Shown here piece after piece: positions 6,805 to 10,605 of a stretch of DNA of 43,961 bases (position 1 is its first letter; each line of letters starts with the position of its first letter). A program made the translations under genes and the position numbers. Where the stretch lies: IMG/VR virus record IMGVR_UViG_3300045988_062034, one strand, 5' to 3'. The DNA is from a virus. Under the pieces are notes generated by a model, which saw nothing but the letters and a program-made list of their open reading frames with translations, did no database searches and was not told the DNA's origin.

Positions 6805-7140
6805 CTACACTGCGTCTATTTTCCGCATAACGCTATTGTACACTCTTGTGTTGACTACTTTGAGCGTGTCCATTAACTCATCCATGATATCCCACACCGC
6901 CGCAGGGTCTTTGCCCTCCACGGCCCGCAAAAAGTCGCTGTCGCCGTACCGGATTACACGAGTGGGGGCTTCCAGGTCCGCTGGTGTTGCAGAGTAGGCC
7001 CGCTCATAGCCTTGATCTGCATGCCGGGTCATTTGGTCCCGGATTGTGTAGAGGCTTGCCAGCTTTGCGTAGTTACTATAGCTGGAGTCTTTATACTCCA
7101 GTTCGGCGATTGCTACGCCGATTTCTTTGGCGTCCAACAT
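6805..7140 (-). CDS. Hypothetical protein (111 aa), last gene of the cargo operon
   Basis: Clean ORF with phage-like codon usage. No domain recognised. Confidence 0.6.
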   Translation of the reverse strand: MLDAKEIGVAIAELEYKDSSYSNYAKLASLYTIRDQMTRHADQGYERAYSATPADLEAPTRVIRYGDSDFLRAVEGKDPAAVWDIMDELMDTLKVVNTRVYNSVMRKIDAV

Positions 7141-7155
7141 ATGGCCGCCTCCTTT

Positions 7156-7593
7156 TTAGGTGGACTCTAGCTGGTTGATACAACGGCGGATTGCATCTCG
7201 CTCTTTGTCATTACTGGCGTTACGCTCCATCTCTTCCAGCTGCGTCATCATGTGCTCTTTTGCCCCATCTCGGCTATAACGGCCCATGCTGTCGCGGCGG
7301 CGCTCGCTATAGTCTCCGCCGTCTCTGCTGTAGTGGCCTCTTACATAATGCTTGCCACGGCTTGCGTAGCTGCTTCCGCGCCCATAATTGCCACGGCCCT
7401 CCATCTCCCAGTCTCCGGCCTGGCTATAGCCACCATCCTCATCCATGATAATGATTTTATCAATGTTTTTAATGGTGTCTGTGAGTTTATGGATAGTTTC
7501 GAGGTCGCCTGCGGACATTTCCTGCTTTTTTGCGATTTCGTCCAGCTCGTCGCAGAGCATTTCGCGTAGGTCCTCTAAGGCTCTCATGCTCAT
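7156..7593 (-). CDS. Hypothetical protein with a helical N-terminus and an R/G/Y/S/D-rich low-complexity core
   Basis: SD ggagaggagag upstream of ATG 7593. Contains GRGNYGRGSSYASRGKHYVRGHYSRDGGDYSERRRDSMGRYSRDG. Confidence 0.6.
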   Translation of the reverse strand: MSMRALEDLREMLCDELDEIAKKQEMSAGDLETIHKLTDTIKNIDKIIIMDEDGGYSQAGDWEMEGRGNYGRGSSYASRGKHYVRGHYSRDGGDYSERRRDSMGRYSRDGAKEHMMTQLEEMERNASNDKERDAIRRCINQLEST

Positions 7594-7610
7594 AATATCT
7601 CTCCTCTCCA

Positions 7611-8033
7611 TTAGCATACACGCTCGGCAATCAGATTGCTGTTTGCAACATTGATCGCCTGAGTGCTGGTATTTTCGACTGCTACCGTCACACAGCATCC
7701 ACGCGGCACCTCGATAAAGACTGCCGTGAACACGTTGAAATAGTCTTCCACCGCAGCGGGCGTTACAATTGCAGTTGCGCTGGCAAGCGGCTCACCGCTC
7801 ACAGACAAAGCAATGGAGATCGGAGACACGGCCCCGCCGGTGGGGATTGCAATGTTTCCGCCAAAGCTCACTTTGTACCGTGCCCGGCACTGGTTAGTCT
7901 GGCCCCGCAGGGTCACAATGCCAGCTCCTTCACGATGGACGATACAGCTTCCCCCAGATACGGAAGTTTCGGTAAGGGGCACATTCTGCCCAGCGGCTAC
8001 AGTCACAGGGCCAATATTCGTATACTCAGCCAT
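7611..8033 (-). CDS. All-beta protein resembling the C1q/TNF-like C-terminal domain of BclA-type exosporium proteins (tentative)
   Basis: Alternating beta-strand pattern of about 140 aa with terminal Cys residues. Resemblance judged by eye only. ATG 8033. Confidence 0.4.
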   Translation of the reverse strand: MAEYTNIGPVTVAAGQNVPLTETSVSGGSCIVHREGAGIVTLRGQTNQCRARYKVSFGGNIAIPTGGAVSPISIALSVSGEPLASATAIVTPAAVEDYFNVFTAVFIEVPRGCCVTVAVENTSTQAINVANSNLIAERVC

Positions 8034-8170
8034 AAAATCAATCCTTTCTAAATGCCTCGATTTCGAGGCGGTTAAAATAAGCGGCGAGGCCATTGCCCCG
8101 CCGCTATGTTCAAAATCGGCACGGGGCCGAACAATTTCGTGATGTCACGAAATAGATGCAGTTATGCAGT

Positions 8171-8914
8171 TTAGCAGCCGCAGGGATTGCAGCAGCTTCC
8201 ATAAACACCTGTATAGGGGTTTGCCACCTGATAAGCCGGGACGGGCAGAGGTGCGGTGCGGCGAAGAATCTCCGCAGTATTCGCATCCATAGCCGCCTGG
8301 AGTACCGCGTTCTGGTTCGCCTGAGACGCAGCCAGCCGGAGACTCTGATTTTCGGCCTGGAGAGTAGAAATCTTATCCTGGCACAGATAATCGAGGATGG
8401 CCCTGGAATTGGCATTGGCATTGTCAATAATGTCCCTGGTGTTGTTGTTCATGGTGTTCTGGAGGGCGCATGTATTGGTTGCCATGTTGTAATTCACGCC
8501 GTCAATCGCCCGCTGGGTCTCGCAGCAGCAGTTCTGAGCCTGCATAGCCATATTGTTGAGCTGCTGCATCAGGGCCGACTGCTGATTGCACCGGGACAGT
8601 TCCGCATTGGAGAAGCCGGTATTGATGGCGTTGTTAAGGGAATAGGTGCTGTCACAAATACCCTGGGTGATGCCGTCCAGCTTGGTTACAACGGAGGAGT
8701 GGTCAAATCCGCGCTGGACCTCAGAACCGACGCCGCCGTTCATGCCGCCACCATCTCCTCCCCAGCCGTTGTTGCCCCAGCCGCAGAAAACAAACAAAAA
8801 CAGGATAATAATCCACCACGCACCATCTCCGCCAAAGCCGCCGAAGCCGTTTCCGCCCATATTGGTGGGTGCAACAGGCATAGTCATCACAGTACCATCA
8901 GAACTCAAAGACAT
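8171..8914 (-). CDS. Membrane protein with a Gly/Trp-rich N-terminus, one transmembrane helix, an N/Q-rich coiled region and a Cys-rich tail
   Basis: GGFGGDGAWWIIILFLFVFCGWGNNGWGGDGGG, internal CCC, C-terminal SCCNPCGC. SD aaaggaga upstream of ATG 8914. Confidence 0.65.
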   Translation of the reverse strand: MSLSSDGTVMTMPVAPTNMGGNGFGGFGGDGAWWIIILFLFVFCGWGNNGWGGDGGGMNGGVGSEVQRGFDHSSVVTKLDGITQGICDSTYSLNNAINTGFSNAELSRCNQQSALMQQLNNMAMQAQNCCCETQRAIDGVNYNMATNTCALQNTMNNNTRDIIDNANANSRAILDYLCQDKISTLQAENQSLRLAASQANQNAVLQAAMDANTAEILRRTAPLPVPAYQVANPYTGVYGSCCNPCGC

Positions 8915-8985
8915 ATGTAGTCTCCTTTCGCATTTACAAAATAATTTTAAGGTTGCTATATTAAATCGTGGCCACGATTATAGCC

Positions 8986-9213
8986 TTATTTGGGCATAAG
9001 CTGCTGAAATTGTCTCGCCATATTCTGCAATTGGTTGAGCTGACTCTGATTCATTTTTCCGGATTGCAGCAGTTTTTCCACCTCTGCTTTCGGGTCCCCC
9101 TGGAAATTCGCCCGGAATTGCTGAAACTGCTGCATCATCTGTGCAAAATTACCCATTGGGCCAGACATAGAGGGCATATTGCCTCCGAGCATAGAAAAGA
9201 GCGGATTAGGCAT
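8986..9213 (-). CDS. Small Q/M-rich hypothetical protein (75 aa)
   Basis: SD gaaggagga upstream of ATG 9213. 8-nt overlap with the upstream gene. Confidence 0.6.
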   Translation of the reverse strand: MPNPLFSMLGGNMPSMSGPMGNFAQMMQQFQQFRANFQGDPKAEVEKLLQSGKMNQSQLNQLQNMARQFQQLMPK

Positions 9214-9700
9214 TATCTGTATCCTCCTTCGCAGATTTTCTCGCGGGCTTGGCAGTATCTTTGATTGTCAGAGCGTCTAAACGAGCCGCCAGGGCCTCAA
9301 CCTCCGCTTTTGTAGCAAACTCTACATTGGGGGGCATATTGGCCGGAGTCGCAATTTTAGGTGTAGCTGTGCGCTCGGTATAGTCGAAGATCCTCAGCGG
9401 TTGTGGCATGCCGGACGCATCGGTGCTCTTGATATAAAACGTGCTGGACTCGCTGTCCATCAACATCACGCTATTGCCCGCCGCAACCAAAAATCCTTTT
9501 GCGCCTTCTTCACCCTGGCACCAGATAATCCCGTTGGATGTGGGCTGATTTTGCTGCGGCTGCTGCATCTGGGGCGGCTGTACTACGGGCTGCGCGATTG
9601 GCTGGAACTGATTCTGCCGCAGTTGCGCAAGCTGATCCGGCATAGGTGGTTGATAATACCCAGGCTGATAGCCGCCAAAATAGGGTTGAGCAAATGCCAT
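9206..9700 (-). CDS. Hypothetical protein with a Q/P/Y-rich N-terminus and a conserved-looking globular core
   Basis: YFGGYQPGYYQPPMPDQ...QPPQMQQPQQNQP, then IIWCQGEEGAKGFLVAAGNSVMLMDSESSTFYIKSTDASGMPQPLRIFDY. Confidence 0.65.
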   Translation of the reverse strand: MAFAQPYFGGYQPGYYQPPMPDQLAQLRQNQFQPIAQPVVQPPQMQQPQQNQPTSNGIIWCQGEEGAKGFLVAAGNSVMLMDSESSTFYIKSTDASGMPQPLRIFDYTERTATPKIATPANMPPNVEFATKAEVEALAARLDALTIKDTAKPARKSAKEDTDNA

Positions 9701-10093
9701 TTAAGATTCATCCTTTCTTTCGCACCAGTAATATAACGGGACTCCACCACCAGAATCCCATGTATCGATCCAGTTCCCGCCACTGACACATACCACATGG
9801 CCTGACAGAGCTAAAATATATGTACCATCCGGATGTTCCTCTGCAAAATCAGACACGTTGTAACAGTCTGGGCAAGTATCCGGCACAATACGGCGTACAA
9901 AGCCTTTAGACCTGAGATAGGCACCCCATACAGAATTTGCTGAGGGAAGATCGCCCATCAAAAACCCCTGGAGAGCTAATCCAATGTAAGTTTCCTCCCA
10001 GCTTTGGTCCAGTGCTGTAGAAATTGCTCTGACTGTGCAGTCCCCTACATTTTTTCCGTCTGGGTTTGCATTGTATTTGATATATCTTCCCAT
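9701..10093 (-). CDS. Putative papain-like (C39/NlpC-like) cysteine peptidase fold protein
   Basis: Candidate catalytic Cys in NVGDCTVRAIS and His in LSGHVVCV, then DTWDSG. Assignment by motif only. Confidence 0.45.
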   Translation of the reverse strand: MGRYIKYNANPDGKNVGDCTVRAISTALDQSWEETYIGLALQGFLMGDLPSANSVWGAYLRSKGFVRRIVPDTCPDCYNVSDFAEEHPDGTYILALSGHVVCVSGGNWIDTWDSGGGVPLYYWCERKDES

Positions 10094-10275
10094 TCTCCAT
10101 TTTTCTCCGCAGTTGAGATTTGAGCATTTGCTTTTATTTTTATGCTCTCATTTGCGCACAAAAAGGATTCGAGTCCATCAAAATCTCCGCAAATATAATA
10201 CCGGTAATAGATATCTCTGGCATTTGGCTCGGAGAATCCGCAGTTGATAAGCCGTGTTATCATCTCGTTTCCCAT
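10045..10275 (-). CDS. Small hypothetical protein (76 aa)
   Basis: SD agaggtga upstream of ATG 10275. The 3' end overlaps the next gene by 49 nt. Confidence 0.45.
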   Translation of the reverse strand: MGNEMITRLINCGFSEPNARDIYYRYYICGDFDGLESFLCANESIKIKANAQISTAEKNGEWEDISNTMQTQTEKM

Positions 10276-10359
10276 AAGGATCACCTCTGCCTTTACTATA
10301 CAAAAAAATCGCCTCCACTGGGTGGCAATCCAGTGAAGGCGTGTGCGTGTTTTGTGAAA

Positions 10360-10605
10360 TTATGTGTAATTTAGCCTTTGGGCAGTCGATTCGACCTTAT
10401 CAATGATGCGCGGAAGCCGTCTTGATATTGTGGAGCGCTCGCACCCGTATTCTGTTGCGATATCAATTTGAGGTATTTGCTCTATCAAATACCTCTGCGC
10501 TATCCCGGTGTCTGTTTTCCCGAGATTCGCCTGGTAAATTGCCTGTTCAATTTCCGACCGCAATAGATTTTTCAGGGTTTCGGGCATGTTAACGTGCGCT
10601 CCCAC
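10360..10605 (-). CDS. Sigma-70 region-4-like HTH protein (small transcription activator)
   Basis: IAQRYLIEQIPQIDIATEYGCERSTISRRLPRIIDKV resembles sigma region 4. GTG 10605 follows SD gagggag. An alternative start is ATG 10587. Confidence 0.55.
   Translation of the reverse strand: MGAHVNMPETLKNLLRSEIEQAIYQANLGKTDTGIAQRYLIEQIPQIDIATEYGCERSTISRRLPRIIDKVESTAQRLNYT

Follow-up and report, generated by a model that had tools for sequence, protein, structure and literature searches.

Phage morons, or lysogenic-conversion cassettes, such as the toxin and immune-evasion genes carried by phages of Staphylococcus and Streptococcus, lie between the lysin gene and the phage attachment site (attP), have their own promoter and terminators and become the outermost unit of the integrated prophage. 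The virus record IMGVR_UViG_3300045988_062034 from IMG/VR (43,961 nt; this whole stretch is called here the window) has in the same slot, with terminators of its own, a block of nine genes, p1 to p9. It is an element of a known kind, a moron or accessory cassette, set apart by its size, conservation and composition. Unlike morons, it has nine genes instead of one or two; thousands of phages from hosts of two bacterial families share its gene order and sequence; some copies lie inside a head operon, and one belongs to a phage that has no integrase; its products have no recognizable secretion signal; and its own promoter is probable only. As read from sequence and structure models, the block appears to combine a BclA_C-like trimer, a Cys-rich bitopic protein, a minimal papain-like enzyme, four orphan low-complexity proteins and a layered regulation that includes a new structured RNA.

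A mobile accessory cassette of gut and rumen phages

Our analysis shows that siphophages of gut and rumen Clostridia carry the block as an autonomous accessory cassette, which is horizontally mobile and dispensable for particle building and for cell lysis. The nine co-oriented minus-strand open reading frames (ORFs) listed in the original prediction were all found where it had placed them (Table 1). Six of the nine proteins strongly match PHROG families of unknown function (E-values from 1e-20 to 1e-73), and the order p3 to p9 is kept in ∼100 loci retrieved with p7 and in 160 loci from two further clades (∼260 in total); because of these matches and the recurring gene order we consider the ORFs to be real genes rather than chance. 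The p6 and p7 families have at least 8000 clusters each at 90% identity, with all members annotated as 'hypothetical', and more than 1100 IMG/VR contigs, sampled from human gut, lemur gut and rumen, carry homologues. No paper or database that we found names the cassette or any part of it; searches for published work on BclA/TNF-like phage proteins, Intestinimonas prophages and host sporulation returned nothing relevant besides the genome paper of Butyrivibrio virus Ceridwen.

The presence/absence behaviour raised in the original prediction is seen in a sibling phage (L107), which shares lysin (97% identity), holin (98%) and fibre (99%) with the window, or 97–100% if the 83-aa protein is included, and has none of p1 to p9; its lysis genes run straight into a tyrosine integrase gene. 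The cassette is therefore dispensable. It does not behave as sporadic cargo; instead, it is strongly conserved across divergent phages. In a large gut-phage group where the lysin, holin and fibre of the window were not detectable, identity to the window is 79–81% for p7, ∼67% for p5, 60% for p3, 55% for p8, 41% for p6 and 25% for p9, while the integrase is 38% identical.

The location of the cassette varies between clades. In a clade like Dulem virus 35 (97 IMG/VR contigs, 80 of them examined) it is found in the head operon, in the order minor capsid protein 2, p3, p1-like helix-turn-helix (HTH) gene, terminator, p4 to p8, terminator, scaffold and major capsid protein; in L132, a member of this clade, p3 starts 6 nt after the Phage_min_cap2 gene, and the L132 homologue has no C-terminal effector domain. 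In Dulem virus 39 the cassette follows the integrase gene in the replication (early) region. In rumen phages it comes after the lysis genes, often with a tyrosine or serine integrase gene after it. The prophage of the isolate Vescimonas fastidiosa MM35 ends in p4 to p9, adjoining host ldh and miaB. Ceridwen has the full set after the endolysin gene (p1-like gene, terminator, an unannotated p2, p3 to p7, an HNH insertion, p8 and p9) and has no integrase; its authors observed lytic growth only and judged the phage to be virulent (PMC7372960). A strict link between the cassette and serine integrases was considered and rejected, as relatives carry tyrosine integrases or none. The sites occupied are known insertion hot spots, and usually the cassette takes the last position before attP.

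Effector domains that are part of MuF or minor capsid proteins, or whose genes adjoin those of such proteins, are known from temperate Firmicute phages. The minor capsid protein 2 of the window (26751–28334, minus strand; Phage_min_cap2, E = 2e-80) has a C-terminal PBECR2 nuclease domain of the Barnase/EndoU/RelE-like kind (residues 404–525, E = 1e-15), an architecture known from MuF-type polymorphic toxins. Where this protein has PBECR2, the head-operon clade has p3. Unlike MuF effectors, the cassette is mostly 15–20 kb away from the minor capsid gene, and p3 was never fused to it in the loci examined.

The first and last 54 nt of the window are identical, and colinearity with relatives continues through both ends. 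From this we take the window to be a phage genome of ∼43.9 kb that is complete and circularly permuted. That it is a prophage with host flanks was ruled out by the terminal identity, by the colinear relatives and by the integrase gene and the cassette adjoining across an intact attP. The genome is of siphophage type, with a Terminase_3 large subunit, SPP1-type portal, HK97-type capsid protein and collagen-repeat fibre. An identical copy of p7 is present in an integrated prophage (L101) on a 192.8-kb contig. This prophage agrees with the window as far as position 6746; from 6745 on, at the centre of the 16-bp attP core, the two sequences differ. After p9 come host genes, namely a truncated lipoprotein-like gene, a phosphoribosyltransferase gene, radC, uvrB and uvrA, and the UvrB encoded on the contig is an Intestinimonas butyriciproducens sequence. 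From the junction and UvrB we conclude that attP is at 6724–6769 and that the host is I. butyriciproducens. The cassette is therefore the outermost unit of the integrated prophage, and the position foreseen for it, between lysis genes and attachment site, is confirmed. The insertion (L101, 11266–11385 and downstream) falls in the 5′ part of a gene whose product starts like a lipoprotein signal peptide. As for the neighbours, the endolysin, holin and integrase calls were borne out by Pfam, while the label 'BhlA-like' given to the gene at 10666–10917 is unverified.

Table 1. Coordinates of cassette genes, regulatory elements and adjacent features in the window
Feature	Position	Strand	Description
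p1	10360–10605	−	81-aa stand-alone sigma-70 region-4-type HTH protein
p2	10045–10275	−	76 aa from ATG at 10275; the ORF list starts p2 at GTG 10284
p3	9701–10093	−	130-aa minimal papain-like Cys-His-Asp protein, predicted enzyme
p4	9206–9700	−	164 aa, Q/P/Y-rich N-terminal low-complexity region
p5	8986–9213	−	75-aa Gln/Met-rich protein
p6	8171–8914	−	247-aa predicted single-pass membrane protein
RNA leader	8070–8158	−	Three hairpins between p6 and p7
p7	7611–8033	−	140 aa from conserved MAE start; TNF/C1q-type jelly roll, BclA_C-like (predicted)
p8	7156–7593	−	145 aa, R/G/Y/S-rich low-complexity linker
p9	6805–7140	−	111-aa protein
Terminator after p1	10310–10341	−	12-bp stem with 8 GC pairs, then a run of seven T
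Candidate −10 element	10295–10302	−	TG then TATAGT, right after the terminator T-run, upstream of p2
Closing hairpin	6776–6803		GC-rich GAGCCCCAG-AAA-CTGGGGCTC, A and T runs on either side
attP	6724–6769		Perfect 15-bp inverted arms GTTATATAATATGAT / ATCATATTATATAAC around 16-bp core
Large serine recombinase (integrase)	5383–6720	+	Convergent with cassette; Pfam Resolvase (E = 3.5e-29), Zn_ribbon_recom (E = 4e-13), Recombinase
Endolysin	11214–12560		Amidase_3 plus NAGPA
Holin	10921–11217		Phage_holin_5_2
83-aa protein	10666–10917		phrog_1009 (unknown function); sub-threshold DUF948

Other elements were seen in these phages. Between the minor capsid protein 2 and scaffold genes the window has a skipping-rope RNA (26625–26721, minus strand; Rfam RF02924, 53 bits versus a gathering score of 36.7); elsewhere the same junction contains the cassette (Dulem-35-like clade), RAGATH-21 (L123, 7097–7173) or a tRNA (L132, 10550–10622). 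Genes for HNH-type homing endonucleases have entered the cassette at different points, between p7 and p8 in Ceridwen or between p5 and p6 in others; HNH insertions were observed in L122 (9518–10312), L001 (14256–14807, with an int-alpA RNA at 14169–14235) and, near 7392 on the minus strand, in L125 and L128. Other Rfam RNAs in related phages are a type II hammerhead (L018, 16061–16127), RAGATH-18 (L122, 1702–1774) and gut-2 (L001, 26834–26881). Locus L018 represents the most abundant gut clade (p7 ∼81% identical); at 7332–8068 its holin gene is followed by a p1-like gene and p3, and no recognizable endolysin was seen among the five genes upstream of the holin, in contigs that are not fully annotated. 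The window itself carries a 45-bp tandem repeat across the junction of the circular assembly (3.4 copies at 1–152 and 2.1 copies at 43868–43961), a 27-bp repeat with 9.3 copies (43096–43347) within the ORF 42895–43683 and, upstream of the integrase gene, a 95-bp repeat with 1.8 copies (4960–5136).

Proteins of the cassette

The compositional features described earlier, i.e. Cys-rich and N/Q-rich proteins, a single span in p6 and its SCCNPCGC end, hold on counting: Cys content is 3.6–4.9% in p2, p3, p6 and p7 versus 1.5% in other long ORFs of the phage, and the sum of Q and N is 28% in p5, 19% in p6 and 15% in p4. Scans of the nine proteins with Pfam and NCBIfam gave nothing above cut-off and none of the nine matched a PHROG structural category; we agree with the original prediction in that no family with a virion, lysis or replication role can be assigned to any of them. 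Among 52 diverse homologues of p2, p4, p5, p6, p8 and p9, no Pfam family turned up recurrently.

The p7 product had been read as a C1q/TNF-like domain of the type found at the C-terminus of BclA, a fold that the original prediction named as its decisive test, and AlphaFold2 and Foldseek agree on this fold. The model, built from a 40-sequence alignment, is all-beta with pLDDT of 92.7. Its best Foldseek match in the Protein Data Bank (PDB) is the C-terminal domain of F-BclA (9h38; E = 1.4e-7, TM 0.71), followed by ExsF/BxpB, BclA, EDA and 4-1BBL (E from 1e-7 to 1e-5, TM about 0.7), with an ExsF–peptide complex (9h3d) also among the matches; in BFVD the matches are stand-alone gut-phage proteins of 130–145 aa (TM 0.81–0.90). 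The modelled protein is presumably trimeric. The p7 of the window belongs to phrog_20016 (E = 5e-64) and has no Pfam match; Pfam BclA_C was reached by one of 23 distant relatives (E = 7e-7). In a search of 1.84 billion cluster representatives the family comprised 690 clusters at 50% identity. The best 150 of the 690 representatives are 72–196 aa long, mostly ∼140 aa, with a single matched stretch, and a collagen stalk is present in none of these 150; p7 itself is 140 aa without repeats, and the collagen-like aspect of the claim is not supported. Collagen triple-helix repeats do occur in a different protein of the window, the tail fibre (13192–14415, minus strand; Pfam Collagen, E = 4e-8); in a near-identical relative (L104, 2443–3957) the collagen-repeat fibre gene is interrupted by an IS200/IS605 element with a Y1 transposase and a TnpB/Cas12f-like OrfB.

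p7 is the most conserved protein of the cassette, 65–81% identical in phages with unrecognizable lysin, holin and fibre. A scan of one genome each of 185,579 species detected its relatives in 19 places only; most of those inspected were phage or prophage contexts. One place (L092, 8628–10818, on a 120-kb contig of an Oscillospiraceae metagenome-assembled genome) is a 2-kb remnant among host metabolic genes, adjoining a transposase fragment, in which p6 is truncated while the leader RNA (84.6 bits), p7 and p8 are all intact; the host may have retained the p7–p8 sub-unit.

The closest described proteins, the C-terminal domain of BclA, ExsFA (BxpB) and F-BclA, belong to the exosporium and endospore appendages of the Bacillus cereus group. 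They have the same fold as p7 (TM 0.66–0.72, E from 1e-7 to 4e-6); ExsFA and the BclA domain are also about the size of p7, which, likewise, has no recognizable signal peptide. Still, sequence identity is just 10–17%. Unlike BclA, p7 has no collagen-like stalk, and no N-terminal exosporium-targeting motif was seen in it. Furthermore, nearly all p7 copies examined are borne by phages or prophages, always along with p6 and p8; the hosts of these phages are Oscillospiraceae and Lachnospiraceae, one of them a bacterium that does not sporulate.

A papain-like Cys/His protein had been proposed for 9701–10093. The residues C19, H99 and D110 of p3 are indeed invariant in 15 locus-derived and 36 database sequences, a CPDC motif is near-invariant, and the fold matches, weak as they are, are all papain-like. 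The AlphaFold2 model (pLDDT 90.3) has Josephin-2 as its best Foldseek match (E = 0.011, probability 0.98, TM 0.45); staphopain, Tae4, TssM and PeiR follow with E > 0.1, and none of all matches has E < 0.001. The protein belongs to phrog_3754 (E = 3e-28) and has no recognizable signal peptide; its profile found nothing among PDB sequences, and it has no Pfam or NCBIfam relative. With Josephin deubiquitinases, staphopain, the type VI secretion amidase Tae4 and the pseudomurein endoisopeptidase PeiR its model shares an N-terminal, putatively catalytic Cys at a helix start, followed by His and Asp on beta strands; it differs from these enzymes in being, at 130 aa, smaller than any, and the TM score is only 0.45. 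Of the cassette proteins, p3 alone has relatives elsewhere. Stand-alone homologues were found in Tsamsa-like Bacillus phages, Geobacillus GBK2 and Lak megaphages; in the Tsamsa-like phages the gene adjoins genes for an Ocr-like anti-restriction protein and a kinase near one genome end. This distribution and neighbourhood suggest that p3 is an enzyme working inside the cell.

For p1, which had been called a sigma-like regulator, the HTH related to sigma region 4 is supported by profile matches, all of them under curated cut-offs: phrog_3512 'sigma factor' (E = 5.6e-6, profile positions 54–118 of 130), TIGR02937 (E = 7.9e-6, positions 107–162 of 165, under cut-off) and Pfam Sigma70_r4 (E = 0.012). 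As there is no region 2, and its 81 aa cover region 4 only, p1 is not a sigma factor. From its sequence and place it is likely to be a dedicated regulator of the cassette. Stand-alone regulators with a region-4/LuxR-type HTH, such as GerE, and small late-gene activators of phages are similar to p1, a single HTH of ∼80 aa with a relationship to sigma region 4, whose gene lies right before those that it may control. Unlike these regulators, p1 reaches no curated family.

p6 is built of a Gly-rich N-terminal tail, one hydrophobic span (approximately residues 32–48), a Gly/Trp-rich segment and an N/Q-rich stretch of ∼150 aa, read from sequence as helical, with an invariant CCC (C129–C131); then come a Pro-rich segment and a Cys-rich tail ending in SCCNPCGC, whose terminal CxC is near-invariant. 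Both flanks of the span are acidic and give no orientation. The protein belongs to phrog_16490 (E = 4e-73), with no PDB or Pfam relative. p5 (Q 19%, M 13%) has a conserved FQGDP loop and could be read as a helical hairpin; it matches phrog_22984 (E = 6e-20) and, at sub-threshold level only, DAHL, the STI1 region of Rad23 and a ubiquilin-like domain. Several architectures were considered for p6 or p5, i.e. gasdermin plus protease, spanin, bacteriocin/SCIFF and WXG100, and ruled out on architecture alone, given the absence of a maturase and of a lipoprotein partner and the wrong predicted secondary structure. That p6 and p7 together make a split fibre like BclA or a TNF ligand was retained as an analogy only, there being no fused homologues.

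The remaining proteins are small. p2 is a helical protein with a conserved motif of ∼40 aa (RLIxCGFxExxAxDI...LExYV) and no family in Pfam, PHROG or NCBIfam; small ORFs with this motif are located at the same place in L011, L085, L088, L097, L001 and Ceridwen. In p4 two parts are conserved, a beta-rich core of ∼50 aa (IIWVQGE...LRIFDYTER) and a helix, EYVTRxEFDALAAK, and the protein ends in a tail rich in K and E; it belongs to phrog_21718 (E = 1e-32), has no Pfam or PDB relative, and its homologues are confined to cassette-bearing phages. In p8, conserved terminal segments, both read as helical, surround the R/G/Y/S-rich linker with an RRDSMGRYSR motif; homologues exist in all clades, with weak matches to phrog_28802 and phrog_9723 and no Pfam family. 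p9 has a conserved C-terminal motif WxxMDELMDTLxxxNxRVYxxVMRK and no match in Pfam, PHROG or NCBIfam; its homologues are 25–56% identical in loci of Oscillospiraceae phages and 38% in Ceridwen, and none was detected in the head-operon clade. Among the clusters of p8 and p4 at 90% identity, truncated forms recur on many contigs (55 aa and 44 aa for p8, 87 aa for p4); these may be frameshifts or alternative gene calls in low-complexity linkers.

Terminators and the leader RNA

The block had been described as a single nine-gene operon. It is not a simple operon of nine genes, because a strong terminator follows p1 and parts it from the other eight genes. The order of elements is p1, terminator, p2 to p6, RNA leader ending in a terminator, p7 to p9 and terminator. 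The last of these is the hairpin between p9 and the integrase gene, which closes the cassette; it is kept in L101 just ahead of the phage–host junction and was found by reading the sequence, a simple terminator scan having failed to flag it.

This punctuation is shared between clades. In all three of them a p1-like HTH gene and then a terminator precede the cassette genes, and the head-operon copy in L132 is also flanked by terminators. In L001, Ceridwen and L132 a hairpin and T-run come after the p1 homologue. The Oscillospiraceae- and rumen-phage sets comprise 52 distinct loci with p1, and by reading of the sequences most of these have the hairpin and T-run too. In the same 52 loci a −10-like TAnnnT follows the T-run in 26 cases (9.5 ± 2.5 in shuffles), a T-run with TGnNAnnAT occurs in 13 (0.7 in shuffles), and GCAC-N6-8-GCAC direct repeats lie next to the p1 terminator in 11 (versus 0.1). 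The candidate −10 site of the window has no −35 element, and thus was missed by a generic promoter scan.

The 137-nt spacer between p6 and p7 has three hairpins, of which the third (8080–8105), a GC-rich stem with a U-run, is an intrinsic terminator located 46 nt upstream of the p7 start. This terminator was flagged by the scan in four diverged phages (the window, L018, L096 and L001), and its stem sequence is nearly unchanged in phages where p6 is only 41–47% identical. RNAalifold detected compensatory changes in 10 of 19 pairs. In 21 distinct leader sequences 97% of alignment cells are paired, compared with 40–52% for slid partners, with 45 compensatory cells and ten pairs altered on both sides; the covariation score was 0.436 versus 0.213 in shuffles, none of 500 shuffles being as high. 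The minimum free energy of the window leader is −53.6 kcal/mol (z = −4.6). A covariance model of the leader was run on 38 sources; in 28 of them, including four loci outside the seed, each cassette gave exactly one match of 53–93 bits, and there was no match in cassette-less loci or elsewhere in the window; in the head-operon clade there was a weak match in the same spacer, and in the rumen clade none.

The leader shares with transcription-attenuating leaders and riboswitches covarying stems, conserved junction and loop nucleotides and an intrinsic terminator upstream of the ribosome-binding site and genes. Unlike known riboswitches, it matches no Rfam family (a search with the spacer gave nothing above noise), and no antiterminator with covarying pairs was detected; GCCCC and GGGGC segments, noticed by eye, could pair as an antiterminator but show no covariation in L089 or L084. 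On the sequence data the leader is a candidate attenuator or riboswitch gating p7 to p9. It could also be a plain terminator together with hairpins stabilizing the messenger RNA.

Possible roles of the cassette

p6 alone of the nine proteins has a hydrophobic span, and by reading, with no predictor run, no N-terminal signal-peptide-like segment was seen in any of the nine; the cassette products would therefore meet inside the infected or lysogenic cell. We tentatively favour the reading, to which we give somewhat less than an even chance, that the cassette encodes an intracellular, membrane-tethered complex directed at the host, as its co-inheritance suggests. Such a complex would be tethered to the cytoplasmic membrane through p6. 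The BclA_C/TNF-like trimer of p7, the most constrained subunit, would be a docking hub, as ExsF is for N-terminal peptides, while the Cys-His-Asp enzyme p3 would process or deconjugate a protein substrate and p4, p5, p8 and p9 would act as low-complexity adaptors or chaperones. p1 would control the promoter just after its own terminator, and the RNA leader would gate p7 to p9 by attenuation. The complex might work in host takeover, counter-defence or exclusion of competing phages, roles useful in both lytic and lysogenic states.

In favour of a hub, p7 is nearest in fold to ExsF and BclA, including the peptide complex 9h3d, and has the highest conservation in the cassette. A host-directed p3 is supported by the invariant triad, by a deubiquitinase as the best fold match and by homologues beside Ocr-like and kinase genes. 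The full cassette in the integrase-less Ceridwen speaks for a use outside lysogeny; hints of lysogenic use are its place as the last prophage unit in the Intestinimonas contig and in V. fastidiosa MM35, as well as the intact p7, p8 and leader of L092.

Several points weigh against this reading. The complex is inferred from co-inheritance, and structure models are at hand for p7 and p3 only. If the C-terminal domain of p6 faces outward, p7 would be unable to reach it without lysis. Genes for exclusion and defence usually evolve fast; p7 and p3 are unusually conserved. PADLOC models of defence systems gave no match with E < 0.01 for any of the nine proteins. The site at 10295–10302 is non-canonical, fails the stricter TGnNAnnAT motif and was read as a promoter by eye; on account of this, both the promoter and a p1 operator are matters of inference. 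Finally, the cassette is co-oriented with late genes in every context but Dulem virus 39, and in a large clade it lies between minor capsid protein and scaffold, both of which fit a role in the virion.

A more far-reaching version, which we consider rather unlikely, would see a widespread phage machine in which a BclA/ExsF-like TNF-fold trimer is docked on a Cys-rich, membrane-anchored stalk protein and which, with a deubiquitinase-like Cys protease, low-complexity adaptors and a riboswitch-like RNA, forms a dedicated intracellular structure. As a platform on the membrane, such a machine could strip or block the protein-conjugation defences of the host; as a cross-linked lattice, it could encase progeny or remodel the envelope. 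A machine of this proposed composition has not been described for any phage.

The virion itself offers another place for these proteins. Comparable to decoration proteins and to cargo linked to minor capsid proteins, p7 trimers might sit on capsid or fibres, while p6, kept soluble by p5, and p3 would be packaged or ejected to act at the envelope of the next host. The head-operon clade, with the cassette between Phage_min_cap2 and scaffold/major capsid and p3 only 6 nt from the minor capsid gene, keeps a structural role possible, and elsewhere the cassette comes straight after the late genes, on their strand. Ceridwen, for which lytic growth alone has been observed, retains it; fibres and spikes of phages commonly have TNF-like knobs (Foldseek matched p7 to the phi812 spike knob, and BFVD gave fibre and whisker matches); absent secretion signals fit assembly in the cytoplasm. 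Yet L107, with structural and lysis genes 97–100% identical to those of the window, has none of the set, and even in the head operon the cassette keeps its own HTH gene, terminators and attenuator RNA, which is unusual for structural genes; given the cassette-less sibling and this separate regulator, terminators and RNA leader, a purely structural role is less likely. Also, the minor-capsid/scaffold junction is itself an insertion hot spot (skipping-rope RNA, RAGATH-21, tRNA), the cassette of Dulem virus 39 is in the early region, and none of the nine proteins matches a PHROG structural family. On balance we regard a virion-associated accessory set as improbable.

For the hypothesis from which the study started, a lysogenic-conversion cassette that builds or remodels the spore coat, the exosporium or another surface layer of the host, we found no direct support, and we now consider it very improbable. 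Its attraction is evident: the fold of p7 is that of the exosporium proteins BclA, ExsFA/BxpB and F-BclA, with one relative matching Pfam BclA_C; a composition rich in Cys or in Tyr/Gly/Arg/Gln, with no signal peptide, is generally reminiscent of coat and exosporium proteins, and proteins that assemble in the mother cell would be expected to lack signal peptides; a papain-like enzyme beside Gln-rich proteins recalls the coat transglutaminase Tgl and a stand-alone HTH protein recalls GerE; and the cassette lies at the prophage end beside attP. What counts against it is that the full cassette is carried by Ceridwen, a phage without integrase, seen only in lytic growth, whose host Butyrivibrio fibrisolvens is non-spore-forming, and that other copies lie in the head operon of one clade and the early region of another. 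The p7 relatives, in just 19 places of the species scan, are mostly phage-bound where inspected, without collagen stalk and with no BclA-type N-terminal targeting motif seen; sporulation-type promoters upstream of p2 or p7 were looked for by eye and no consistent motif was apparent. Even less probable is an accessory lysis or cell-wall module, with p3 as a peptidoglycan endopeptidase leaving through the holin lesion and p6 as a membrane-active partner. L107 has lysin, holin and the 83-aa protein only; although the cassette usually comes straight after holin and endolysin genes, canonical endolysins are present also in the window, Dulem virus 33, Ceridwen and the Vescimonas phages. In phages of the L018 type, where the holin is followed by a p1-like gene and p3 with no recognizable endolysin nearby, p3 might be the missing endolysin. 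The weak fold matches of p3 do include the peptidoglycan amidase Tae4 and the pseudomurein endoisopeptidase PeiR, but with E-values of 0.46–0.81 they are not significant; p3 homologues in Bacillus phages are in a genome-end region by Ocr-like and kinase genes, and seven of the nine proteins would be left with no role.

With these results, a set of odd ORFs has become a unit with boundaries, internal regulation, a mapped attP and a named host. Exosporium-type TNF-fold proteins are shown to be common as stand-alone phage proteins, and the leader is a new structured RNA candidate with good covariation. Culturable systems exist in Ceridwen on B. fibrisolvens DSM 3071, the prophage of V. fastidiosa MM35 and lysogens of I. 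butyriciproducens. If the cassette acts in counter-defence or host takeover, a new class would be added to such systems; if it decorates the virion, a frequent feature of gut phage particles would be explained. For the dominant butyrate-producing Clostridia, the cassette makes up a large and coherent part of the phage dark matter.

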